Notes under the pieces: generated by a model | Told to the model about the DNA's origin: nothing | What the model saw: the letters and a program-made list of their open reading frames with translations, nothing else | Databases searched by the model: none | Shown: positions 13,007 through 61,579 of the stretch, piece after piece | Layout: the number at the start of each line of letters is the position of its first letter | How positions within the stretch are numbered: the stretch's first letter is position 1 | Program-made: the position numbers and the translations under genes | Origin: Octopus vulgaris | Taxonomy: Eukaryota | Direction: 5' to 3' | NCBI GenBank assembly: GCA_951406725.2 | Contig: OX597828.1 | Span: 48,360,001 to 48,424,000, forward strand | DNA: 64,000 nucleotides

Positions 13007-13062
<56 letters not shown>

Positions 13063-13069
<7 letters not shown>

Positions 13070-13738
13070 AATCTTAGGGTTGCAAGAATATTTATCGAAA
13101 AATTCTTTGTTACCAGTGGTCTAGCGAGGACAAAATTTAGTCAATAGACTATAGATTATTCAGAGAACAATACAGTGTACATTCAAACACATAAGAGATA
13201 ACCAAAAAATAGGATATCTGACTCACTAGAAAGAGCAGTTAAACTCCAAGCCACTAATTGTAATTCTGAAAGTGAATGAAAAATAAAAACTTTCACCTTA
13301 TTGTCCTAGACCATGCATAGTTTCTGCAGTCTTAAATATAGATTGAAATAAAATAATTCCAATCTATATCTGGTGCTGCTTCTTCAGTAGGATGCCAAGG
13401 ATCGAACACATAGATACGGGGCGATAAATAACCAGCCACGTGTCTATATGTTATAATTTTTCGAATCCATCGCGCAAATGCGGAACTAACCGGCAGTAAA
13501 TAAATTGCTAATTTTCTTCCAAAATTAGCCAAAAACATTTTATCATTGATTAAAAAATCTTAGGGTAGCAAGAATATTTATCGAAAAATTCTTGTTACCT
13601 GTGGTCTAGCGAGAAGGAAAAAATTTAGTCAATAGACTATAGATTATTCAGAGAAGAATATAGTGTATATTCAAACGCATAAGAGATAACCAAAAAATAG
13701 GATATCTGACGAGCATCCACTAGAAAGAGCAGTTAAAC
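13063..13738 (-). mobile_element. Hammerhead-containing partial tandem (486-bp period), Penelope-like/retrozyme-like
   Basis: 13063-13245 is repeated at 13549-13738; abuts (TA)n; hammerhead at 13304-13392. Confidence 0.75.
13304..13392 (-). ncRNA. Type I hammerhead ribozyme with extended stem II
   Basis: UCCUA-CUGAAGA-A-GCAG...(hairpin insert)...CUGC-A-GAAACUAUGCAUGGU-C-UAGGA; intact core, GUC triplet, self-complementary stem III. Confidence 0.85.
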
Positions 13739-14084
13739 CTTAAGGACGTGGAAATACTTGGGTTGGTGTCCAGGCGCGTGGTTAGACCACTGGAAGTGGA
13801 AGGCTCCTCTGTTGTCACGCCATCTCTCTAGGGGACAGAAACTCTGAGGGAAAACCTGCGACACTGACAATATTCGATGAATGAGACTAGTTCTTCTTTT
13901 CGAGTTTATGTTGTCCATGTTTAGAGAGTGGGAATGCATTGGTGCAAATCCTTCCCCACTATGAAAAATCATTATGCACAGGCATCGCTTGAAAAAGGAA
14001 AAAAAAGTAAGACCTATCACAAAAATGGCTGGTCGTAGCCTTCGCATGTGTGGGACTTTCGATCAGGCGATGGCAATACTTGTA

Positions 14085-14745
14085 AGGCGGCGAGATGGCA
14101 GAATCGTTTGCACGCCGGGCCAAATGCTTAGCGGTATTTCGTCTGCCGATACGTTCTCAGTTTAAATTTCGCCGAGTTCGACTTTGCCTTTCATCCTTTC
14201 GGGGTCGATTAAATAAGTACCAGTTACGCACTGGGGTCGATATAATCGACTTAATACTTTTGTCTGTCCTTGTTTGTCCTCTCTGTGTTTAGCCCCTTGT
14301 GGGTGGTAAAGAAACAGGTATTTCGTCTGCCGATACGTTCTCAGTTTAAATTTCGCCGAGTTCGACTTGGCCTTTCATCCTTTCGGGGTCGATTAAACAA
14401 GTACCAGTTACTTTATGACTTGTCCATATTTTCACAGACATTTTATTTGATTTTCCACTTCAGTATTGTGTGTGTGTGTGTGTGTTTGTGTGCTTGTTTG
14501 TCCCCCCACCACTATCGCTTGACAACCGATGTTGGTGTTTACGTCACCGAAACTTAGCGGCTCGACAAAAGAGGATGATAGAATAAGTACTAGGCTTACA
14601 AAGAATAAGTCCTGGGGTCGATTTGTTCGACGAAAACCCTCCAAAGCCGTGCTCCAGCATGGCTGCAGTCAAAGACTGAAACAAGTAAAAGAATAATATA
14701 TATATATATATGGCGGTGCCCCAGCATGGCCACAGCTCATGAGCT
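14085..14745 (+). mobile_element. SINE B partial dimer followed by SINE A 3' half
   Basis: Matches family B at 14085-14410 and the family A tail at ~14465-14745. Confidence 0.8.
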
Positions 14746-14779: not shown

Positions 14780-14862
<83 letters not shown>

Positions 14863-15084
14863 CAATATAGCGTGGCAAAAAAAAAAATTTGTAGAATTCT
14901 TTTGCCACCAGCGGCCTAGTGGGAAAAAATTAAATAGTCATAAACCATTTTTAAGTTCAACATCACAATCAAGGAACGGCCATAATAGGCCATTCACCCA
15001 CTAGAAATAACAGCTAAAAGCTTCAACCGCAAAATAACATCAATTCCGTAAACCAGGAGAAAATTAAAAAACATTTACCCTGTA

Positions 15085-15191
15085 ATTTCTTAGACGATGC
15101 ACCGTTTCATCAACTGTTTAATGGAAAACTAACCTGATTAAATTAAATCAAGCCAATCTACCATAGGCCCTTAGATTCATCAGTAAGAAAT
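15085..15191 (-). ncRNA. Type I hammerhead ribozyme (copy 1)
   Basis: Same motif as 16019-16125 with an intact CUGAUGA core and one mismatch in stem II. Confidence 0.8.
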
Positions 15192-15531
15192 AGCCAAGCC
15201 GGAACAGATATTTTTCACGAGGCATTCTCGTTGCTACCTCGTCAATATCTGACCTAAAATTTTCAAATCGTCGCACTCGCGCCAAATTTATCGGCAGCAA
15301 ATAAATATAAGCCGCCGATTCCATTACGGAATTAACCAGAAAATTCATAATTAATCAATATGATTAATTGATTAATTATGAATTTTCTGGTTAATTCCGT
15401 AATGGAATCGGCGGCTTATATTTATTTGCTGCCGATAAATTTGGCAGTGCGACGATTTGAAAATTTTAGGTCAGATATTGACGAGGTAGCAACGAGAATG
15501 CCTCGTGAAAAATATCTGTTCCGGCTTGGCT

Positions 15532-15636
15532 ATTTCTTACTGATAATCTAAGGGCTATGGTAGATTGGCTTGATTTAATTTAATCAGGTTAGTTTTCCAT
15601 TAAACAGTAGATGAAACGGTGCATCGTCTAAGAAAT
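15532..15636 (+). ncRNA. Hammerhead copy 2, core G8 missing
   Basis: Reads CTGATAATCTA instead of CTGATGAATCTA; this copy has several other 1-2 nt deletions. Confidence 0.55.
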
Positions 15637-16018
15637 TACAGGGTAAATGTTTTTTAATTTTCTCTGGTTTACGGAATTGACGTTATTTGCGGTTAAAGCT
15701 TTTGGCTGTTATTTCTAGTGGGTGAATGGCCTATTATGGCCGTTCCTTGATTGTGATGTTGAACTTAAAAATGGTTTATGACTATTTAATTTTTTCCCAC
15801 TAGGCCGCTGGTGGCAAAAGAATTCTACAAAATTTTTTTTGCCACCCTATATTGATTAATTATGAATTTTCTGGTTAATTCCGTAATGGAATCGGCGGCT
15901 TATATTTATTTGCTGCCGATAAATTTGGCGCGAGTGCGACGATTTGAAAATTTTAGGTCAGATATTGACGAGGTAGCAACGAGAATGCCTCGTGAAAAAT
16001 ATCTGTTCCGGCTTGGCT

Positions 16019-16125
16019 ATTTCTTACTGATGAATCTAAGGGCCTATGGTAGATTGGCTTGATTTAATTTAATCAGGTTAGTTTTCCATTAAACAGTAGA
16101 TGAAACGGTGCATCGTCTAAGAAAT
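16019..16125 (+). ncRNA. Type I hammerhead ribozyme with extended stem II (copy 3, intact)
   Basis: AUUUCUUA-CUGAUGA-AUCUA...(58 nt)...UAGAU-GAAACGGUGCAUCGU-C-UAAGAAAU: 8-bp stem I, perfect core, 5-bp stem II base, predicted cleavage after C16117. Confidence 0.88.
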
Positions 16126-16243
16126 TACAGGGTAAATGTTTTTTAATTTTCTCCTGGTTTACGGAATTGACGTTATTTTGCGGTTAAAGCTTTTGGCTGT
16201 TATTTCTAGTGGGTGAATGGCCTATTATGGCCGTTCCTTGATT

Positions 16244-16309
<66 letters not shown>

Positions 16310-16310
16310 T

Positions 16311-16368
<58 letters not shown>

Positions 16369-16415
16369 GTATATATATATATGTATATATATATATGTAT
16401 ATATAAATGTATATG

Positions 16416-16475
<60 letters not shown>

Positions 16476-16742: not shown

Positions 16743-16784
16743 CAGACAAACAGGCACACACATAAACATCTAGCCAAACATACA

Positions 16785-17032
16785 TACAGGGTTGGCCAAA
16801 AGTCACCCGACTGTAAATAAAAATTCCTTAAACGCTTAATATTCAATTTTATTTATTCATTCCAATTATGAATGTTTAATAATAGAATGCTGTGAGTTAA
16901 AATCACCGTTTCCCCCCCCCCCACCATTTGTCTATTTATTAGCGAGGTCCCATATAATATAATTTTTTGTTTCCATCTTGGAATTAAACGGGGTTTTGAT
17001 TTACTGTCAAGTGACTTTTGGCCAACCCTGTA
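16785..17032. mobile_element. Tc1/mariner-type MITE
   Basis: TA-CAGGGTTGGCCAAAAGTCAC ... GTGACTTTTGGCCAACCCTG-TA. Confidence 0.9.
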
Positions 17033-17156
17033 TATAGAAAGTTCGTATCCACAGAGAAAAAGCACCCACCTCAGTCCCTCTGTCTCCCCCGTTTCCTCAG
17101 TTCACGCCCCCACCCACCCACTATCCTTCTCAGCCTATACATGAACAGAAATCACG

Positions 17157-19042: not shown

Positions 19043-20261
19043 TACAGGGGTTGGACAAAATAATGGAAACATCTTAAAATTTCAAACAAATTTATTTTAA
19101 TATGGGGTAAGTTCACCTTTGGCAATAATTAAAACTTGAATTCTACGAGGTATGGACTCGTACAAAGTTTGAATTGTTTCCAAAGGAATTTTTGTCCATT
19201 CTTCAGCTAAAACAGTCTCCAGTTCTTGTAGTGATGATGGTGGAGGATATCGACGTCTTAATTGTTTTTCTAAAATGCACCATAAATGTTCAATAATATT
19301 GAGATCTGGGGACTGTGGTGGCCAGATAAGATGTTCAACTTCACTAGAATGTTCCTCGTGCCATTCAGTAACAATTTTAAGCTGTGTGAATTGGCGCATT
19401 ATCATCCTGAAAGATTGCGTTTCTCTCTGGAAACAGTTCCGCAACCATAGGATGAATTTGATCAGATAAAATGTTTAAATAGTCTTGGCTATTAATTCTG
19501 CCATGAAGGGAAACCATTGGGCCAGCGGATTTCCAAGATATAGCCCCGCCTCTCCAGATCATCACAGATCCTCCTTCACCTATACTTGTTGGAAATAAGG
19601 TAAAGGAAGACTCGTCCGAGAAAATAACATTCTTCCACTGCTATTGGGACCAATTCTGTAGGTTTATACTCCACTCTAAATGCTTTGTAACGTTTGTTTT
19701 TGAAAGTAGCAGTTTTCTGATTGCAGCCCTCCCGTGAAATCCGGTTTTGTGTAGTTCCCGGCGAACAATTTTTGTGGAAACTGGGTTCTCGAGGTGGTCA
19801 TTAAATTGCTGTAATTTTGGGAGATGTACTTTTGCGATCCTTTCTAGCAATTCGCCAAAGAATCTGATGGTCCATCTCTGAAAGTTTTGGTTTTCTTCCG
19901 GATTTTATTTCGACGAGGAGGGTTTTCCCTCTTTCTCAAAGGCTGTCATTACTTTCGAGACATTACTTCTTGCTACACCAAACATTTCGGCTGTTTTCGT
20001 TACGCTGGCGCCTGCCATACGAGCACCAGCAATTTGAATTCTCTTTGAAAGTCCGTTAGATCCGTCATTTTAATGAATTTTAATTACCTTTTTCTGATGA
20101 TATCTGAAAAGAAACAACAACTTTAGTAAAACATATTAAGCAACACTAATAATAAATAAAGACAAACATTAAAATAAACAAGCTTTTGACGGTTTTATAG
20201 ATATTTCAAAATTATGATGCTATGACGCTAGGTGTTTCCATTATTTTGTCCAATTCCTGTA
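19043..20261 (-). mobile_element. Near full-length defective Tc1 (DD34E) element
   Basis: TIRs TA-CAGG..TTGGACAAAATAATGGAAACA at both ends; FQDDNAPIH and WPPQSPDLNIIEHLW motifs split by frameshifts. Confidence 0.93.
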
Positions 20262-30964: not shown

Positions 30965-31378
30965 GGTCGCTTAGAAAAACAATGAAAAATGAAACAAGAA
31001 GAAAAGAGAAACTAATGTCAAGCGCTGAAGACAGTGGGTAGGGAAAGGAGAAATAGCGGCACCCCAGGCTAAAGAAGGTCTTCACCCAAATAAGGTGTTG
31101 TTATCTGTTTGGTGGAATATGAAAGGTTCACTTCACTTTGAAATTTTAAACCCAAACCAAACTATAACAAAGGAGATCTACTGCGAGCAGCATGAGCGGC
31201 TTAAATCAGCGCTAGAAGAAGACCAACCATCTTTGGTTTCAAGACGAAAGGTGTTCTTCCATCAGGATAATGCTCGGCCATGTACAGAGAAGATGACATT
31301 CCAAAGGCTGAGCAGTTTCAATAGGAAACGATGTCCCACATACCATATTCGTCGGACATTATCTGATTATCATTTGGG
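30965..31378 (+). mobile_element. Mariner transposase relic
   Basis: HPNKVLLSVWWNMKG and FHQDNARP motifs. Confidence 0.85.
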
Positions 31379-31379
31379 G

Positions 31380-31880
31380 TGAATTTATGTATGGGGGTAG
31401 CACGAAGAATCTTTCATATCCTGACAGTTTGGTCCCGACCGGGGAGCATAGTTGTAGCTCAATGATGATTTGGAGATCCATTTCGCATTACAAAACTCTC
31501 TGGGCTCTTTAGTTGTTCTACATGGTAGAGTTACCGCCAAGGATTATCTGAGCATTTTGGTCAATCCTGCCCATCCTATTGTTCAAACATTCTTTCTCTG
31601 TGACAAGATGTAAAATGCGCCGATTCACATGGCTTATGTTACGAAGAACCCTAAAGTGGAGTAGACTATTTTGATTGGACTCCCACAATCACCAGATCTC
31701 GATATAATCGAACATTTTTGGTGTATTTTGGAGGAGCAAGGGAAAAGCCGCTCTCCCCATCCCGTCGTTGCGGAAAGAGCAAAAGCATGTTTTATATGAA
31801 AAAATAGCTTAAAACTTCCCTATTAAGGGCTCAGAACATGTATAAGTCAAATTTACAACCTATTAAGGTAGTGATTGGTG
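31380..31880 (+). mobile_element. Degenerate Tc1 transposase relic
   Basis: PQSPDLDIIEHFWCILEEQ, similar to the 19-20 kb element. Confidence 0.7.
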
Positions 31881-32039: not shown

Positions 32040-32940
32040 TGTTTCTATATTAGCCACACAGGGCCGAACACGGAGGGGACAAAATACAATGTAGAGCTTT
32101 TCTTTTTGGAAAAAAGGGGGGAGGGTTGAATAAAATTTCGATCAAAAGGGATCGTGGAAAAAAGAATAAAATGCTGATCAATAGGGATCGTGTATCACAG
32201 AGATGTCATAAATGTAAAAGGGAAAAAGGGATTAGGTTTATCCGTGGAAAGAAAAGCCTACAGAAAGACCACGGTAACCTCGGGCAATAATGTCATGCAA
32301 AAAAAAACATTACAGTAAGTGACTCTCTTTTTTCCCTTTCTTTTTTTGGTTCATAGGATTATATTCAAGGTGGCTCCGTCATTCACAAATGCCATCCTTG
32401 CTACATTCACCCATTGAAACATTCACTAGACAAGACTTCCCTCTCTACTCTTACCTTCCTCTTCAAGTGATACTTGAAGAAGCTGATGAGATTGACCAGA
32501 GAGGAAAGTGTTTGTCTCTAGACCTTTCAGACGCGTCTACCACACGCGTTCTTTCGCCATAGCCACAAGTATGATGAAAATGACTCTTCCTTCCCGTTTG
32601 AAGAGAGGAGGCACAACAATATCGACCATAAACTCGGCTAATAAACGGACTCGTCCCACATGCGATAGCAGTCGTTCGACGTAAGCCCACAGGTCGGAAA
32701 TGGTTGAACACTGCAGGTCGGCCCGGTGTTTCTCGAACCATGCCTGTAGAGCTTATCCAGAATGGGTAACGCTTCTCGATAGCACTGCCAGGCCAGGGAT
32801 CTCTGGAAGTTGTCCATAGGTCCCGACCCGAAAGTCGTCTTGAACGGGCGGGCTAGGTATTCCTCGCCGACGCCCAGGTTCGCCCCGAGATCGTCGTCTC
32901 TCCACTCTACTAATCCCCTATAGAATGTTTTGGTTGTGAT
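32040..32940 (-). mobile_element. Diverged Tx1-type LINE 3' fragment adjoining (TG)n
   Basis: Similar to 39030-40067 (GGACAACTTCCAGAGATCCCTGGCCTGGCAGTGCTA; end GTGTGGCTAATA.AGAAACA). Confidence 0.8.
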
Positions 32941-33183
32941 GCGCTGGCCTCATGGTTTGCAGTCGCCATTTTCGAAGCGAAAAATGGCTAAAATGAATCG
33001 ACGAAAGCCTTCAAAATTTTGGAAATTTCGCCCAGGGAGGGGCAAAATCCTATATAAATATTAATGAAGTTTGGAAGTATATGTTGTTGGACAAATTTTT
33101 AACACCAAATATTTGACAATATAAACTTTTAAACACACAAAAATAACCAACTTATGTGGAGCCGGTTTGACTAGCGTCCGTGC

Positions 33184-37777: not shown

Positions 37778-38703
37778 ATAGATAAATGATAAAATATGGC
37801 AATTCACTTCGTTTCAACGAGACACTAGCTTTAAAAGCTCTCATTTGATTGGTCGATCGGCTTTCATCGCTCCGTCTAGCGCGTCAGCCATATCACTGTG
37901 GGAGGCTGGATAAATTTGAATTAAAACAGACAAACGACGAAGGAGTAGCAGCAGTAGGAGGAGGAGGAGGAGGAGGAGAAATGATTGAGAAAAAAAAAAA
38001 AGGAAGCAGGAGGAGGAGGAGATGAAACAGAGGACAGAGACAAAGAATGACAAATAAAGAAAGAGAGAAAGAGAGAATGAAATCTAGCAGAATAATTAGA
38101 GGAGAGAGAGAGAGCGAGGCCTCGTTAAATTTTCATCGCTTCGTGATTTGCCATTTGCTTCATTACTCGGGGAAGGAAAGAGGCCAGATGAATATAATGC
38201 ATAAAACAACGGCCGCAGACCATACAAAACTGTCATTTTATGTATCAAATCAATTGTCCAGTGCTTGTCTCTTTACTGATTTTTTTCGCTTTTCAAATAA
38301 TTCTTTTGTCAATTTGCTATTCTCTTCCCATTCTTAATCGATGAAATGCTGCTGCTGCTGCTGTTGTTGTTGTTGTTGTCGTCGTCGTCGTCGTAGTAGT
38401 AGTAGTAGTAGTAGTAGTAGTTGTTGTTGTTGTTGTTGTTGTTCATATAATGTCATAGTCGATTTTAGTATTTTGTTTTTTTACTCTGCTTTTTTTCTTC
38501 TTCGCTCTCTGTGTGCGCATACGTGTGTGCGGGTGTTTGTGCTTTCACTTATAGTAACGTACTCATACATGTGTGTGTGTGTGTGTGTGTGTGTTCGTGC
38601 TTGTGCGCGTGCACACACACGCACAAACACACACATGTACACACACGTATATATATGTTTGTGTGTATTTATAATTTTATGTATACATATGTGTGTATGT
38701 CTG

Positions 38704-38749
<46 letters not shown>

Positions 38750-38752
38750 AGT

Positions 38753-38815
<63 letters not shown>

Positions 38816-38825
38816 CCTCTATCTG

Positions 38826-38876
<51 letters not shown>

Positions 38877-38877
<1 letters not shown>

Positions 38878-40067
38878 CGCCGTTTGTGAGGCACGCTTTC
38901 CCGCAGCTCGTCTCCATGACCGAACTGCAGTCGTGGATCAAAAAGAGGCCGAGGAAGGGCGAATGGCACCGCGAGTGTCGCTTTGCTCTCAAGCAACTCT
39001 GCCGTCCTGGGTCGACCTTAAGTGACTTCAACACAACCAAAGCATTCTATAGGGGTTTAGTGGAGGGGAGGTACGACGACGAGCTCGGGGCGAACCTGGA
39101 CGTCGACGAGGAGTACCTGACCCGCCTGTTCAGGACGACTTTCGGGCCAGGGCCCATGGACAACTTCCAGAGATCCCTGGCCTGGCAGTGCTACCGAGAA
39201 GCGCTACCCGTTCGGGATAAGCTCTACAGACACGGCTCGAGAAACACGGGGCCGACCTGCCCGAGATGCGGTCAGAGCGACGAAACCGTTCTGCACGCAC
39301 TCGTTCAGTGTCCAACAATTTCCGACCTGTGGGCTTGTGTCGAACAACTGCTGTCACGTGTGGGACGAGTCGGTTTATCAGCTGAGTCTATCGTCAATAT
39401 TGTCACGCCTCCTTCCTTCAAACGGGAAGGAAGAGCTATTTTCATCATCCTTGTGGCTATGGCGAAAGAATGTATCTGGTGGACGCGTCTGAAAGGATTG
39501 GAGACAAACACTTTCCTCTCTGGTCAATCTCTCATCAACTTCTTCAAGTACCACTTGAAAAGGAAAGTGAGAGTAGAGAGGCAAGTTTTGTCTAGCGAAT
39601 GTTTTAAAAAAAGATGGGTGAATGTAGCAAGAATGGCACGTATGAATGACGAAGCCACCTTGAGCATAGTCCTATGAACCCAGAAATCGAAAACAGAGAG
39701 TTGCTTATTTGCAAAAAAAAAAAAAAAAAAAAAAGAAATATAAAATGTGACTTCATTGACCGAGGTTACCGTGGTCTTTTCCGTAGGCTTTTCTTTCCAC
39801 GGGTAAACCTCACCTGTCCTCCCCTTTACACTTCATATTGACATTTCTGTGATAACGATCCCTATTGATCAATTTTTTTCCTCCCCCCCTTTTTTTTAAC
39901 CCCCCCTTTTTTTGTCCTCTTTCTCTCCTTTTACGATCCCTTTTGATCGAAACTCCCCCTTCCTTTTTTTTTTTTTTTTTTTTTTTTTTTCTAACCCTTC
40001 AAAAGAAAAGCTCTACCTTGTAATTTGTTCTATCTGTGTGCAGCCCGGTGTGGCTAATAAAGAAACA
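38877..40067 (+). mobile_element. 5'-truncated Tx1/L1-clade LINE: ORF2 C-terminus (zf-RVT-type CCHC) plus 3' UTR
   Basis: Open frame to the stop at 39677 with [16 protein letters not shown]...[18 protein letters not shown]; AATAAA near the end; (TATC)n on both sides. Confidence 0.92.
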
Positions 40068-41629: not shown

Positions 41630-42407
41630 TTTGCTCCATTATATGAAACTGTATCCTTATATCTCTCGTTTGATTCATGTATTAATGGAAGATGATCCAG
41701 ATCGTCGCTTGCGGTTTGCAAAAGAATGGCTGGACAAATAGAACAATGACCCAACATTAGAAGAACATGTTGTCTAGACTGATGAGTCAACATTTTATGT
41801 TTCAGGGAGTGTTGTTCGGCATAACTATGGGTACTGGAGACAAGAAAATCCTCAAGTCACCATTGAGTATGACCACAAAAATCCTGGTATTATGTTGTGG
41901 GCATTTGTGAGTTACAACGGACTCGTGGGGTTATTCTTTATTGAAGGTGGCGTAAATTGGATCACGTACCTGAAACTTTTACAAACCCAAGTACTCCCTA
42001 AGTTAAAGGAACAAGAAGACTTTGAAGAATGATGGTGCTCCCCAACATTATTCATTGGCTGTCTGTGATTGGCTGAATAAAATTTTCCCTGATCGTTGGA
42101 TTGGGAAGCGGGATCATGTGGAGTGGCCGGCTCGCTTACCTGATTTAACACCACCAGACTTTTTGTGTGGGGTTATCTAAAAGACCGTGTCTATCGTCAG
42201 AAGATTAAACAGTGTTGAACATCTTATACAAGTAATTATCCAAGAATGTGAAACAATAGGCACAGGAGTGGCTGTGTGGTAAGTAGCTTGTTTACCAACC
42301 ACATGTTTCCGGGTTCAGTCCACTGCGTGGCACCTTGGGCAAGTGCCTCGGGCCGACCAAAGCCTTGTGAGTGAATTTGGTAGACGGAAACTGAAAGAAG
42401 CCTGACG

Positions 42408-42463
<56 letters not shown>

Positions 42464-42888
42464 TGTGTGTGTTTGTGTATCTGTGTTTGTTTCCTTAGCA
42501 TTGCTTGACAACCGATGCTGGTGTGTTTATCTCCCCGTTACTTAGCGGTTCGGCAAAGGTGACCGACAGAATAAGTACTAGGCTTACAAAAGAATAAGTC
42601 TCGGGGTCGAGTTGCTCGACTAAAGGCGGTGCTCCAGCATGGCCGTAGTCAAATGACTGAAACAAGTAAAGAGTAAAAGAGTAATCCCAGTAGACATGTG
42701 TCGTAAAGCATGTCAAAATGTTTCAATACGGTTACAAGCGTGTGTTGCAGCAGGAGGCCCAGTTGACTATGAAATGGAAAACCGATTTAACTAAACAGTA
42801 CATTCATTAATTTAATATATTTGTGTGCTTATAAGCATACCAATAAATATATCTAACAAGTGAGTCATGAATTCTGGCCCACCATGTA
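41630..42888 (+). mobile_element. Defective Tc1/mariner (DD41D-like) element interrupted by SINE A (42257-42684)
   Basis: EWPARLPDLTPPDF and WGYLKDRVY before the SINE, IPVDMCRKACQNVSIRLQACVAAGG after it; TIR-like end ATGAATTCTGGCCCACCATG-TA. Confidence 0.8.
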
Positions 42889-42916
42889 TGTATGTATGTA
42901 TGTATGTATATATATA

Positions 42917-43135
42917 CCGGAGTAAACACATAAATGTGAAACAAGGTGGAAAAAAGAGTACTCAAATACCAGTGGTAGAGTAATATGCTTTATTTAAAGC
43001 AGCAGAAAATTCAACAAAACCTGTTATTTGAGTTTTCCCGTTGCCGTTCGTCGGACAGTTTTTGTTAGAAAAAACTGTCCGAGAACGGCAACGGGAAACA
43101 GGTTTTGTTGAATTTTCTGCTGCTTTAAATAAAGT
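42917..43135. mobile_element. Fold-back element with hammerhead motif between TA-rich tracts (second copy at 45664-45883)
   Basis: Inverted arms around TTTTTGTTAGAAAAAA. Confidence 0.65.
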
Positions 43136-43207
43136 ATATATATATATATATATATATAGGGAGAGTTCAGGAAAAAAAGAAAAGACGAAGACAGGAATAG
43201 AAAAAGT

Positions 43208-43243
43208 CTTTTACGTTTCGAGCCTAGGCTCTTCTACAGAAAG
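43208..43243 (-). ncRNA. Minimal hammerhead motif, Penelope-type (duplicate at 45957-45992)
   Basis: CUUU-CUGUAGA-A-GAGC(CUAG)GCUC-GAAACGU-A-AAAG; palindromic ACGU stem III; A6-to-U deviation. Confidence 0.6.
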
Positions 43244-43519
43244 GGACACAGAAAAAAACAAGGAGAGAAAAAATGTGTGTAGTGGCTAACGATCTATCAT
43301 GTATGTATATATATATATATATATATGTACGTATGTATGTATGTATGTATGTATCTATGTATGTAAGTATGTATGTAAGTATGTATGTAAGTATGTATGT
43401 ATGTAAGTATGTATGTATCTATGTATGTAAGTATGTATGTATGTATGTATGTATGTACGTACGTATGTATGTATGTATGTATGTATGTATGTATGTATGT
43501 ATGTATGTATGTATGTATA

Positions 43520-44286
43520 TACAGTGTGCGTAAGATATTTGAGGACAGATTTATGTTTATAAAAAACAGATATATATCAGATAATAACTTTATTTGCCAA
43601 AAAATGCTATGAGGATAAAAATAAACTTTCTTTTCTATAATGTTATTCAATAAAGCCACCTTTAGCTTCAACAACTGCTTCTATATGAGATCTAAATCAC
43701 CTACATGCTCGAATCAAATGGTCCTGGTTCATTTTGGATACTACTCTGACTATGGCAGTTTTCAAAGAATCTTTGGTGTGATGGGCGTGTTCATTAACCT
43801 TTCTCTCAACAATGCTCCACATGTAATAGTCCAATGGATTGAGATCTGGGGAATTAGGAGGACAAATGTTAGGGGTTATGTGATCATCAAAATTTCCAGC
43901 TATCCATTCCTGTGTCACTAGAGCCATGTGTGATAGTGCAGAGTCTGAAACACATATGACCTTCCATTGCATACATTTCTATCCAGGCCTTAACAATTGT
44001 TTTCAGGACATCAATGTAGGCGGTAGAGTTAACTCTAAGGCCTGGTGGAAAGAATTAAGAAGGCATCACATGTCCTTCATTGCTGACAACCCCTAAAACA
44101 ATGACAGTTGCAGGAAATTTTGTTTGCATAACACTTGGAAATTTAGAAGGGTCTGCATATAACCATCTGTCATTTTTTCTTTTAACTTTTCGATCTAGGT
44201 CAAGTTTTTCTCGTTTGAGAAAAACCAAATCTTCTGCTAGATTTCAGTTTGTTTAAGAATCTTTTAGATCTGATGGAGTGATTTTA
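43520..44286 (-). mobile_element. Tc1/mariner maT-like transposase relic (duplicate at ~46265-47031)
   Basis: PPNSPDLNPLDYYMWSIVERKVN; terminus TA-CAGTGTGCGTAAGATA. Confidence 0.85.
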
Positions 44287-44386
44287 NNNNNNNNNNNNNN
44301 NNNNNNNNNNNNNNNNNNNNNNNNNNNNNNNNNNNNNNNNNNNNNNNNNNNNNNNNNNNNNNNNNNNNNNNNNNNNNNNNNNNNNN
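44287..44386. other. 100-N scaffold gap flanked by a 2.65-kb near-identical duplication
   Basis: 41640-44286 is repeated at 44387-47031 with only small differences. Confidence 0.95.
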
Positions 44387-45154
44387 TATATGAAACTGTA
44401 TCCTTATATCTCTCGTTTGATTCATGTATTAATGGAAGATGATCCAGATCGTCGCTTGCGGTTTGCAAAAGAATGGCTGGACAAATAGAACAATGACCCA
44501 ACATTAGAAGAACATGTTGTCTAGACTGATGAGTCAACATTTTATGTTTCAGGGAGTGTTGTTCGGCATAACTATGGGTACTGGAGACAAGAAAATCCTC
44601 AAGTCACCATTGAGTATGACCACAAAAATCCTGGTATTATGTTGTGGGCATTTGTGAGTTACAACGGACTCGTGGGGTTATTCTTTATTGAAGGTGGCGT
44701 AAATTGGATCACGTACCTGAAACTTTTACAAACCCAAGTACTCCCTAAGTTAAAGGAACAAGAAGACTTTGAAGAATGATGGTGCTCCCCAACATTATTC
44801 ATTGGCTGTCTGTGATTGGCTGAATAAAATTTTCCCTGATCGTTGGATTGGGAAGCGGGATCATGTGGAGTGGCCGGCTCGCTTACCTGATTTAACACCA
44901 CCAGACTTTTTGTGTGGGGTTATCTAAAAGACCGTGTCTATCGTCAGAAGATTAAACAGTGTTGAACATCTTATACAAGTAATTATCCAAGAATGTGAAA
45001 CAATAGGCACAGGAGTGGCTGTGTGGTAAGTAGCTTGTTTACCAACCACATGTTTCCGGGTTCAGTCCACTGCGTGGCACCTTGGGCAAGTGCCTCGGGC
45101 CGACCAAAGCCTTGTGAGTGAATTTGGTAGACGGAAACTGAAAGAAGCCTGACG

Positions 45155-45210
<56 letters not shown>

Positions 45211-45768
45211 TGTGTGTGTTTGTGTATCTGTGTTTGTTTCCTTAGCATTGCTTGACAACCGATGCTGGTGTGTTTATCTCCCCGTTACTTAGCGGTTCGG
45301 CAAAGGTGACCGACAGAATAAGTACTAGGCTTACAAAAGAATAAGTCTCGGGGTCGAGTTGCTCGACTAAAGGCGGTGCTCCAGCATGGCCGTAGTCAAA
45401 TGACTGAAACAAGTAAAAGAGTAAAAGAGTAATCCCAGTAGACATGTGTCGTAAAGCATGTCAAAATGTTTCAATACGGTTACAAGCGTGTGTTGCAGCA
45501 GGAGGCCCAGTTGACTATGAAATGGAAAACCGATTTAACTAAACAGTACATTCATTAATTTAATATATTTGTGTGCTTATAAGCATACCAATAAATATAT
45601 CTAACAAGTGAGTCATGAATTCTGGCCCACCATGTATGTATGTATGTATGTATGTATATATATACCGGAGTAAACACATAAATGTGAAACAAGGTGGAAA
45701 AAAGAGTACTCAAATACCAGTGGTAGAGTAATATGCTTTATTTAAAGCAGCAGAAAATTCAACAAAAC

Positions 45769-45806
45769 CTGTTACTCTGAGTTTCCCGTTGCCGTTCGTC
45801 GGACAG
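45769..45806 (-). ncRNA. Minimal hammerhead motif with CCGACGA core
   Basis: CUGU-CCGACGA-A-CG(GCAA)CG-G-GAAACUC(A)GAGU-A-ACAG; the copy at 43021-43059 differs in stem III. Confidence 0.6.
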
Positions 45807-47104
45807 TTTTTGTTAGAAAAAACTGTCCGAGAACGGCAACGGGAAACAGGTTTTGTTGAATTTTCTGCTGCTTTAAATAAAGTATATATATATATATATA
45901 TATATAGGGAGAGTTCAGGAAAAAAAAGAAAAGACGAAGACAGGAATAGAAAAAGTCTTTTACGTTTCGAGCCTAGGCTCTTCTACAGAAAGGGACACAG
46001 AAAAAAACAAGGAGAGAAAAAATGTGTGTAGTGGCTAACGATCTATCATGTATGTATATATATATATATATATATGTACGTATGTATGTATGTATGTATG
46101 TATGTATGTATGTATGTATGTATGTATGTACGTATGTACGTATGTATGTATGTATGTATGTATGTATGTATGTATGTATGTATGTATGTATGTATGTATG
46201 TACGTACGTATGTATGTATGTATGTATGTATGTATGTATGTATGTATGTATGTATGTATGTATATACAGTGTGCGTAAGATATTTGAGGACAGATTTATG
46301 TTTATAAAAAACAGATATATATCAGATAATAACTTTATTTGCCAAAAAATGCTATGAGGATAAAAATAAACTTTCTTTTCTATAATGTTATTCAATAAAG
46401 CCACCTTTAGCTTCAACAACTGCTTCTATATGAGATCTAAATCACCTACATGCTCGAATCAAATGGTCCTGGTTCATTTTGGATACTACTCTGACTATGG
46501 CAGTTTTCAAAGAATCTTTGGTGTGATGGGCGTGTTCATTAACCTTTCTCTCAACAATGCTCCACATGTAATAGTCCAATGGATTGAGATCTGGGGAATT
46601 AGGAGGACAAATGTTAGGGGTTATGTGATCATCAAAATTTCCAGCTATCCATTCCTGTGTCACTAGAGCCATGTGTGATAGTGCAGAGTCTGAAACACAT
46701 ATGACCTTCCATTGCATACATTTCTATCCAGGCCTTAACAATTGTTTTCAGGACATCAATGTAGGCGGTAGAGTTAACTCTAAGGCCTGGTGGAAAGAAT
46801 TAAGAAGGCATCACATGTCCTTCATTGCTGACAACCCCTAAAACAATGACAGTTGCAGGAAATTTTGTTTGCATAACACTTGGAAATTTAGAAGGGTCTG
46901 CATATAACCATCTGTCATTTTTTCTTTTAACTTTTCGATCTAGGTCAAGTTTTTCTCGTTTGAGAAAAACCAAATCTTCTGCTGGATTTCAGTTTGTTTA
47001 AGAATCTTTTAGATCTGATGGAGTGATTTTATCGGATGGATTTTATCTGATGGTGTATATTTTACCCCAGTGTCACTTTGATGGCATGCACTGCTCTCTC
47101 ACTC

Positions 47105-48724: not shown

Positions 48725-49510
48725 GGCGGCGAGCTGGCAGAATCGTTAGCACACGGGCGAAATGCTTAGCGGTATTTCGTCTGCCGTTACGTTCTGAGTT
48801 CAAATTTCGCCGAGGTCGACTTTGCCTTTCATCCTTTCGGGGTCGATAAATTATGTACCAGTTACGCACCGGGGTCGATATAATCGACTTAATCTGTTTG
48901 TCTTTCCTTGTTTGTCCCCTCTGTGTTTAGCCCCTTGTGGATAGTAAAGAAATAGGTATTTCGTCTGCTGCTACGTACTGAGTTCAAATTCCACCGAGGT
49001 CGACTTTGCCTTTCATCCTTTCTGGGTCGATAAATTAAGTACCAGTTACGTACTGGGGTCGATGTAATCGACTTAATCCGTTTGTCTGTCCTTGTTAGTC
49101 CCCTTCTATGTTTAGCCCCTTGTGGGTAGTAAAGAAATAGGTATTTCATCTGCCGCCACGTTCTGAGTTCAAATTCCACCGAGGTCGACTTTGCCTTTCA
49201 TCCTTTCGGGGTCGATTAAATAAGTACCAGTTACGCACTGAGGTCGATATAATCGACTTAATCTGTTTGTCTGTCCTTGTTTTTCCCCTCTGTGTTTAGC
49301 CCCTTGTGGGTAGTAAAGAAATAGGTATTTCGTCTGTCTTTACGTTCTGAGTTCAAATTCCGCCGAGGTCCACTTTGCCTTTCATCCTTTCCGGGTCAAT
49401 AAATTAAGTACCAGTTACGTACTGGGGTCGATGTAATCGACTTAATCCGTTTGTCTGTCCTTGTTAGTCCCCTTCTATGTTTAGCCCCTTCTGGGCAATA
49501 AAGAAATAAG
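48725..49510 (+). mobile_element. SINE family B tandem tetramer (~185-bp unit)
   Basis: One head followed by four body units joined at AAATAG/GTATTTC. Confidence 0.88.
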
Positions 49511-61029: not shown

Positions 61030-61503
61030 TACAGGGTCAGGCAAAATGATCTGACACATTTGTAGGTTAAATAAAAGGCAAATGAAGTAAAGAAACAAAA
61101 AAGTGTTTTTATTTTTGAAAAGTACACATAATGCCATTTTGTTTCATTATGTTTTAAAAATTAAATCAGTCAAATGGGATCCATTACTGTCCACACACTG
61201 TCGAAGGCGTTCACGAAAGTTGTCAATAACTCGGCGGGTCATTTCATGTGGAATGGCAGTAATTTCTTGACGAATTGCATCTTTAAGTTGTTCAATAGAT
61301 CGAGGGCGATTAATGTATACTTTTGACTTGAGGTATCCCCAGAGAAAAAAATCGCACGGATTTAAATCAGGTGAACGGGCGGGCCAACCGATGTCACCAC
61401 GCAATGAGATCAAATGACCAAGGAACATATTCCTCAAAATCCCCATCGCACGTCGAGAAGTGTGGGCTGTTGCCCCATCCTGTTGAAACCAAACATTGTC
61501 CAT
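61030..61503 (-). mobile_element. Tc1/mariner DD41D transposase 3' fragment with one TIR
   Basis: WFQQD-(41 aa)-DFFLWGYLKSKVY including WPARSPDLNPC; terminus TA-CAGGGTCAGGCAAAA. Confidence 0.9.
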
Positions 61504-61540
61504 ATGTCTCTGATTTAAATCCGTGCGATTTAAATGCGTG

Positions 61541-61574
<34 letters not shown>

Positions 61575-61579
<5 letters not shown>

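Follow-up and report, generated by a model that had tools for sequence, protein, structure and literature searches.

The closest described systems are Penelope-like elements (PLEs) and the metazoan non-LTR retrozymes. PLE insertions are described as having a partial tandem, an adjacent inverted copy at the 5' end, an optional tail and a bias towards TA (PMC8557442). In the anole PLE, apparently the sole PLE to have been studied in vitro, reverse transcription is reported to start internally, at a stem-loop that lies 3' of the hammerhead. Both strands of the DNA undergo cutting and extension, the template is predominantly unprocessed RNA, and the ribozyme is described as protein-dependent and dispensable in vitro, with no RNA reads reported to end at the cut (PMC11167929). 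A review regards PLEs as likely partners of retrozymes (PMC7761336). In a 2026 preprint, whose described sampling includes no mollusc, matches to known elements, almost always PLE ends, are reported for 24 of 57 Xenopus retrozyme families, and animal retrozymes are argued to be non-autonomous PLE derivatives (10.64898/2026.07.22.740005); if that argument holds, 'retrozyme' and 'PLE-derived' are one class. As to how animal retrozymes move and why PLEs keep hammerheads, circular templates were proposed in 2020 (PMC7229834), as against the uncleaved RNA and internal initiation of the 2024 PLE study (PMC11167929).

For cephalopods, 235 Hammerhead_1 loci have been reported in the giant squid (PMC6962438), 31 recently active PLE families in Octopus vulgaris (PMC13282606), and Penelope expansions in coleoids (PMC8967140). 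An earlier note on this DNA, which recognized a hammerhead-bearing repeat as either a retrozyme-like or a Penelope-derived system, knew of no description of such a family in cephalopods. This holds in that our literature search, with most subscription journals and Repbase/Dfam outside its scope, turned up neither an account of a cephalopod retrozyme nor one of the long-stem-II form described here, but Hammerhead_1 loci and active PLEs are on record as above, in accounts that do not appear to link the two. The family may already be catalogued in the subscription literature or in Repbase/Dfam.

The locus lies in a 64,000-nucleotide stretch of Octopus vulgaris DNA, the whole of which is referred to here as the window. 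Three copies of a non-coding unit (family A, GC 0.363) are present in the orientations -/+/+, between (TA)n runs at 14780-14860 and 16247-16452 that form the left and right sides of the presumed target. Copy 1 (15361-14859, minus strand), the inverted arm, is a full 493-nt unit plus a 10-nt terminal redundancy that repeats its own start, the last two letters of which could derive from the TA run. The left (TA)n run adjoins its RNA-sense 3' end, near which is a 3'-terminal hairpin (14870-14912, minus strand), a putative reverse-transcription start signal that is common to family B with compensatory changes. Copy 2 (15367-15858, plus strand) is a full unit, deletion-rich as assembled, with its 3'-terminal hairpin at 15810-15846 (plus strand), and its end overlaps the start of copy 3 (15849-16248, plus strand). 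Copy 3 consists of the first 400 nt of the unit and ends in a short AT microhomology with the right (TA)n-rich run, which adjoins its 3' end. As a tandem, family A amounts to 1.8 units; copies 2 and 3 are head-to-tail and the two arms head-to-head across a 5-nt joint (15362-15366) inside an 8-nt local duplication, both 3' ends facing outwards into the TA runs. The earlier note had counted three copies of about 490 nt; the count stands, but some 90 nt are missing from the 3' end of copy 3, the terminal hairpin among them. Its observation that the end of the unit runs directly into its own start is borne out by a seamless head-to-tail junction.

Comparison of copies 2 and 3 reveals five deletions and no substitutions over 391 nt, with one of the deletions in the ribozyme core, and because the pattern is one of deletions alone, those in copy 2, including a missing core G, are probably errors of the consensus or sequence. 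Copies 1 and 3 differ by four substitutions and no gap over 398 nt. These four sites, together with the differing outer flanks, make a foldback or mirror-image read chimera an unlikely source of the inversion. We note that at 15024 and 15039 copies 2 and 3 carry minor family alleles and copy 1 the majority allele, and that other rare family alleles are common to all three copies. One subfamily may have supplied two slightly different templates, one for each arm of family A.

All three copies contain a type I hammerhead motif, as had been proposed. The motif in copy 3 (16019-16125, plus strand; cleavage-site C 16117) is intact, that in copy 1 (15085-15191, minus strand; cleavage-site C 15093) is mismatched at the base of stem II (15112), a change private to this copy, and that in copy 2 (15532-15636, plus strand; cleavage-site C 15628) lacks one core G as assembled. 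The cleavage sites of copies 2 and 3 are separated by the 489 nt given in the earlier note, and the full core and 8-bp stem I that it assigned to copies 1 and 3 were recovered with a strict type I descriptor, for which these are the only matches in the 64-kb window and for which 0 of 2000 dinucleotide shuffles of the unit gave a match. A relaxed descriptor yielded five matches in the window, two of which (32483 on the plus strand and 21596 on the minus strand) have 4-bp helices, are unrelated to the unit and were judged to be chance.

In the copy 3 motif, the 8-bp stem I is accompanied by a 68-nt stem II domain, composed of a 5-bp base, an internal loop and a long hairpin, and by a 12-nt stem III segment that is self-complementary at 12 of 12 positions. 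With the core held single-stranded, the fold of the copy 3 dimer is at -73.1 kcal/mol compared with -56.0 kcal/mol for two monomers, and the stem III hairpin of the monomer contributes only -0.2 kcal/mol; the unconstrained minimum-energy fold of the monomer differs from the hammerhead. For family B the corresponding values are -65.7 kcal/mol for the dimer and -49.0 kcal/mol for two monomers. Cutting is predicted only for paired units, joined via the palindromic stem III, and the single hammerhead is expected to be weak. Dimeric PLE hammerheads are said to have been treated by Lunse et al. in 2017.

The Rfam Hammerhead_1 model (RF00163), put forward in the earlier note as a check, comes close to missing the motif. 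A 4-kb scan contains no match at E<=1, returning only hairpin look-alikes, but the isolated copy 3 motif scores 20.5 bits (E 0.0068), below the gathering score of 34, and all core positions and the three-way topology of the model align with it. The low score is attributable to the long stem II insertion. Hammerheads with a long stem II are probably under-counted, because they fall below the Rfam cut-off and outside the 7-17 nt spacers of a published descriptor (PMC8557442).

A sister element, family B, lies just 1.1 kb away and was missed in the earlier note, such that two related families are present inside 3.2 kb. Family B has a full 486-nt unit (13063-13548, minus strand), a colinear homologue of family A whose 3' end adjoins a (TA)n run at 13010-13062, together with a 5'-truncated upstream copy of 194 nt (13549-13742, minus strand), a classical PLE partial tandem totalling 1.4 units. 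The GC content of family B is 0.331 and the units of the two families span 484-493 nt. Families A and B are identical at 309 of 454 aligned bases (68%), with an alignment score of 326 compared to a maximum of 219 in 500 shuffles. Directly past the truncated 5' end of family B there are about 250 nt (13743-13990) of more GC-rich sequence that is unlike the unit and has no Pfam matches in five frames.

The family B hammerhead (13304-13392, minus strand; cleavage-site C 13309) is unlike that of family A in sequence but follows the same plan, with a 5-bp stem I that includes a compensatory pair, a 56-nt stem II domain with an A.A apposition at its base, and a stem III that is self-complementary at 12 of 12 positions; it has no match to the Rfam hammerhead at E<=10. 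At the site where PLE hammerheads typically have a bulged base after position 9 and a G10.1-C11.1 pair, family A forms an A-U pair; in family B an A is bulged and the pair is G-C, but an extra A precedes the second core box. An automatic consensus fold of the A/B ribozyme alignment recovers stem I only, because the sequence alignment displaces stem II, and the helices of the two families were therefore compared directly. Outside of the ribozyme, the A/B consensus folds contain pairs changed on both sides in the 3' domain (7 of 32) and in the 5' domain (6 of 40); with just two independent families these changes are suggestive rather than statistical.

Words of the unit are present in 20 sequencing runs from eight studies with five organism labels, and at least half of the words are found in 6 of the 20. 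None of them is listed as RNA, 14 being marked as such by guess only, and all are contigs, so that they speak neither for nor against expression. Runs with small shares of the words, among them those of organisms B and E, do not count here as evidence. Contigs aligning to copy 1 at 85% likeness number 6,055 in run X15, 1,384 in X16, 80 in X1 and two in X17; X15 and X16 are from one study, and X15 may be the source of the window itself. Copy number is not read from the contig depth, which sums to about 1e6 in X15. Head-to-tail joints are seen in three of these four runs (X15, X16 and X17), with at least nine different junction sequences. No strand-change joint is present among the joints listed for the four runs, and the inversion is therefore known from this assembly alone. 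Loose ends were considered in 18 of 122 rows; the two at the 3' end of the unit both represent the tandem junction, the majority of the rest are diverged variants and a few are short and unexplained; none in these 18 rows leads into a recognizable ORF.

Variation within the family is informative as to the ribozyme, in which 15 variants lie among 40 of the 55 variant rows. The listed ribozyme variants leave the conserved core untouched except at the variable positions 7 and 17. Position 7 varies in 24-29% of depth, as expected for a hammerhead, and at position 17 A replaces C, with 99% of the depth in both X15 and X16 and 47% in X1; GUA is a permitted hammerhead cleavage triplet. One stem II pair has A to G at 23, 29 and 35% and U to C at 31, 35 and 28% in X15, X16 and X1, respectively, allele shares that would fit an A-U to G-C exchange. 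Two variants in stem I yield G-U wobbles, and at the two central positions of the stem III palindrome AU replaces GC, both bases having the same depth and the same number of contigs in X16, so that the palindrome is kept. A counter-example is a variant that disrupts the first stem II pair (20% in X15, 14% in X16), with no partner change among the rows listed. Judged from these variants, the family's variation spares the ribozyme core and keeps pairing in stems I to III, and covariation of the stems, raised in the earlier note, is suggested both by the stem II alleles at matching frequencies in three runs and by the compensatory changes between families A and B. At 15093, 15099-15100 and 15199 the allele shares of X1, an RNA run by guess only, are very unlike those of X15 and X16: the window's own rare letters are much more frequent in X1, as is the GC-to-AU variant of stem III. 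This allele shift, drawn from only 80 contigs, could reflect subfamily-specific sampling or expression.

There is no Pfam match to an RT core or to GIY-YIG in 13 selected frames of the window, no long frame between 12000 and 16300 except for microsatellite read-through, and no autonomous partner element was found at the locus or linked to the unit. The longest sense frame of the unit is 68 codons and is frameshifted at 15211 in 11-44% of depth in three runs. A frame of 65-68 codons at the start of the unit is open in both families, at 35% identity, but frameshifts are common in the family; the frame has no Pfam matches, none of 176 candidates among longer proteins matches it at E<=0.1, and there is no match in 1.84 billion representatives, and we do not consider it to be a gene. 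Conserved GT- and AG-like motifs 3' of the ribozyme raised the idea of an intron, but in each family the conserved blocks form an 8-bp stem with one another, and the listing for X1 contains no splice-like skip. A 21-base core pattern has no match in metagenome contigs, and a 15-base pattern found at 41 viral loci was dismissed as chance, the best match to the unit being 24-25 nt. The Octopus Naiads were likewise rejected as a partner, with Naiad_Ovul, Naiad_Omin and the 3' part of Naiad_Obim being unlike the unit when compared by eye, without alignment.

A mixture of similarities is seen when the locus is compared with described elements. In common with metazoan non-LTR retrozymes, the unit is non-coding, has a GC content below 50% (36% and 33%), is present in many copies and belongs to a type for which PLE mobilization has been proposed (PMC7229834; 10.64898/2026.07.22.740005), and its units are head-to-tail, each with a type I hammerhead motif. 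At 484-493 nt they are larger than the 150-450 nt described in one source (PMC7229834) but inside the 51-972 nt range of the 2026 preprint. Where metazoan retrozymes are described with a short stem II hairpin, the stem II domain here is 56-68 nt, and where invertebrate retrozyme hammerheads are reported to cleave mostly as monomers (PMC7761336), the 12-nt palindromic stem III here is predicted to favour dimers. The inverted arm and TA flanks also set this locus apart. In the preprint 'active' appears to denote two consecutive complete hammerheads, and here copy 3 is preceded by copy 2, with a core deletion that may be real or an error of the consensus.

The pseudo-LTRs of EN+ PLEs (Penelope/Poseidon, Neptune, Hydra) are described as having partial tandems, an adjacent inverted copy, a (TA)n bias, a type I hammerhead with a palindromic helix III, and a 3' terminus located at a stem-loop past the ribozyme, all of which have counterparts here; the dimer-type architecture reported for PLE hammerheads (PMC4209133) is that of the copy 3 fold. 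Unlike those elements, there is no RT plus GIY-YIG ORF between or beside the units. Stem I is 8 bp in family A compared to 4-5 bp in the schistosome motifs described, helix II is reported as 6-8 bp in PLE hammerheads (PMC4209133) compared to the far longer stem II here, and family A is without the bulged base and G10.1-C11.1 pair given as typical of PLE hammerheads. The 10-nt redundancy of copy 1 contrasts with the 30-40-nt tail of PLEs, in which it is optional (PMC8557442). Naiad PLEs of Octopus (Naiad_Obim, Naiad_Ovul) share the (TA)n preference in a cephalopod, and one is annotated with half of a hammerhead core, but Naiads are described as having no canonical hammerheads and as old remnants in cephalopods (PMC8557442), unlike the family here. 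By sequence criteria, this is a real, structurally conserved, many-copy family that is retrozyme-like and not an autonomous PLE. The class is already known, and the family extends it and overturns nothing; new relative to published examples are the 56-68-nt stem II domain and the stopping of both arms at nearly one site, far from the cut.

The boundaries of the insertions provide the context for considering how they arose. All three outer RNA-sense 3' ends (copy 1, copy 3 and family B) are at TA runs, with a rough chance of 0.7% per end. The 3' ends of copy 1 and family B coincide within a few letters at a homologous aligned position, after the hairpin with compensatory pairs, and are 231 and 246 nt, respectively, downstream of the cut. 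The starts of the two family A arms are no more than 7 nt apart and precede the cleavage site by 261-268 nt, so that the ribozyme site coincides with neither boundary. For copy 3, whose end is 90 nt short of the proposed start, either internal priming or a later deletion is required.

The element probably belongs to the non-autonomous PLE-type hammerhead retroelements, whichever template was used, and the earlier note's proposal of a non-autonomous ribozyme-bearing retroelement family is supported by the tandem and inverted PLE-type anatomy and by the abundance of copies; the linear or circular RNA of about 490 nt that it envisaged is a prediction. For the full mechanism, a scenario to which we give close to an even chance is that of a non-LTR retrozyme, itself a PLE derivative, inserted into (TA)n from a linear, uncleaved, more-than-unit RNA by a borrowed PLE RT and endonuclease. 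Transcription would start about 10 nt upstream of the 3'-end position, such that a monomer would already carry a short terminal redundancy. A PLE protein would nick the (TA)n run and reverse transcription would begin at a fixed site that lies 231-246 nt 3' of the cut, just past the conserved terminal hairpin. Seamless head-to-tail copies would result from template jumps via the redundancy or from read-through of an existing tandem, and priming from both nicked strands would give two arms joined head-to-head with their 3' ends outward. Pairing of two units via the palindromic stem III would enable the hammerhead to cut, and tandem transcripts would thereby be trimmed. Trans-mobilization by a PLE from uncleaved RNA is favoured because it matches published PLE anatomy and the behaviour of the anole PLE; we infer each step past the anatomy, from two insertions examined in context.

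The same boundaries are also fitted by a circular template, in which self-cleavage of tandem transcripts as dimers would release a 489-nt monomer that is ligated into a circle, on which a PLE RT starts at the 3' hairpin, rolls round, and stalls shortly after whole laps. On this reading copy 1 would represent a single lap with 10 nt added, and the other arm would represent two, provided that copy 3 has since lost its end, which calls for an extra deletion. An RT using a cleaved linear monomer could presumably copy only about 231 nt, so that full units would call for a jump or a circular template. Conservation of the ribozyme, both family-wide and from A to B, is strong and suggests that cleavage matters, a circumstance for which a purely uncleaved template accounts poorly and a circle better. 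Circles have been demonstrated for coral, mussel and axolotl retrozymes (PMC7229834), and the circular fold of the unit is more stable than its shuffles (z -5.9 for A and -4.6 for B, 60 shuffles each), although paired bases make up only 59-61%. Set against these points, stem III is PLE-like and PLE hammerheads are reported to be poor cleavers in vitro (PMC4209133), and in vitro cleavage was reported in only one of nine Xenopus retrozyme dimers (bioRxiv 2026.07.22.740005). We regard the circular template as a possible but rather unlikely origin. Doubtful too, and slightly more so, is the broader proposition of a very abundant, multi-species family of about 490 nt in which a dimer-dependent long-stem-II hammerhead, overlooked by standard searches, frees circularizing monomers and a PLE RT rolls from the conserved hairpin. 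If it were true, rolling-circle reverse transcription would have left its footprint in the genome as arms of one lap plus 10 nt and of two laps, and with thousands of copies the link proposed between PLE machinery and the circles of retrozymes could be tested directly by census.

Two further explanations would deny the unit an independent life or an RNA route. It could be ordinary pseudo-LTR debris, in which 5'-truncated insertions derive from an autonomous PLE with ORF-bearing copies elsewhere; the anatomy does match that of PLE insertions (PMC8557442), genomic PLE hammerheads are described as mostly solitary and probably from truncated copies (PMC4209133), and a rare ORF junction could hide beyond the 18 of 122 loose-end rows. 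This is nonetheless improbable, given that the 3'-end position runs into the unit's own start and not into foreign sequence, with joints in three of four runs and both listed 3' loose ends being the tandem junction, and that no ORF lies between units at the tandem junction in A or B. Less probable still is an origin at the DNA level, as a satellite or foldback in which a decayed element with a passenger ribozyme expanded by unequal crossing-over or slippage and was inverted by rearrangement or by the assembler. The deletions in copy 2, the lack of an inversion joint among those listed in four runs, and a second assembly oddity in the window, the 2.65-kb 99% duplicate across an N gap, are in its favour, but the arms differ as noted above in both sequence and outer flanks, the arrays are short and flanked by TA runs, and compensatory changes in the ribozyme and 3' domain at 68% identity indicate selection on RNA structure. 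A genome-wide count of 3' and 5' ends could separate the preferred scenario of insertion from uncleaved RNA from that of the circular template, since the family is numerous and has a diverged sister, and its ends are fixed and can be mapped.

Among the various other repeats in the window, we note a 250-bp miniature inverted-repeat element at 16784-17033 with 23-bp terminal inverted repeats and TA-like ends, which we take to be probably of the Tc1/mariner type. Fragments of Tc1/mariner transposases (DDE_3, Transposase_1) are present at 19097-19474, 31029-31382 and 61147-61575, the last only at E 0.076. LINE 3' ends with a zf-RVT domain are found at 38469-39677 (plus strand; E 1.4e-07) and 32638-32949 (minus strand), each beside simple repeats. 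The region 41640-47031 contains a 2.65-kb direct duplicate of 99.4% identity flanking a 100-N gap, probably an assembly overlap artefact. A SINE-like repeat with a 184-bp unit occurs in tandem at 48771-49508 (four copies) and at 14133-14411 (about 1.5 copies).
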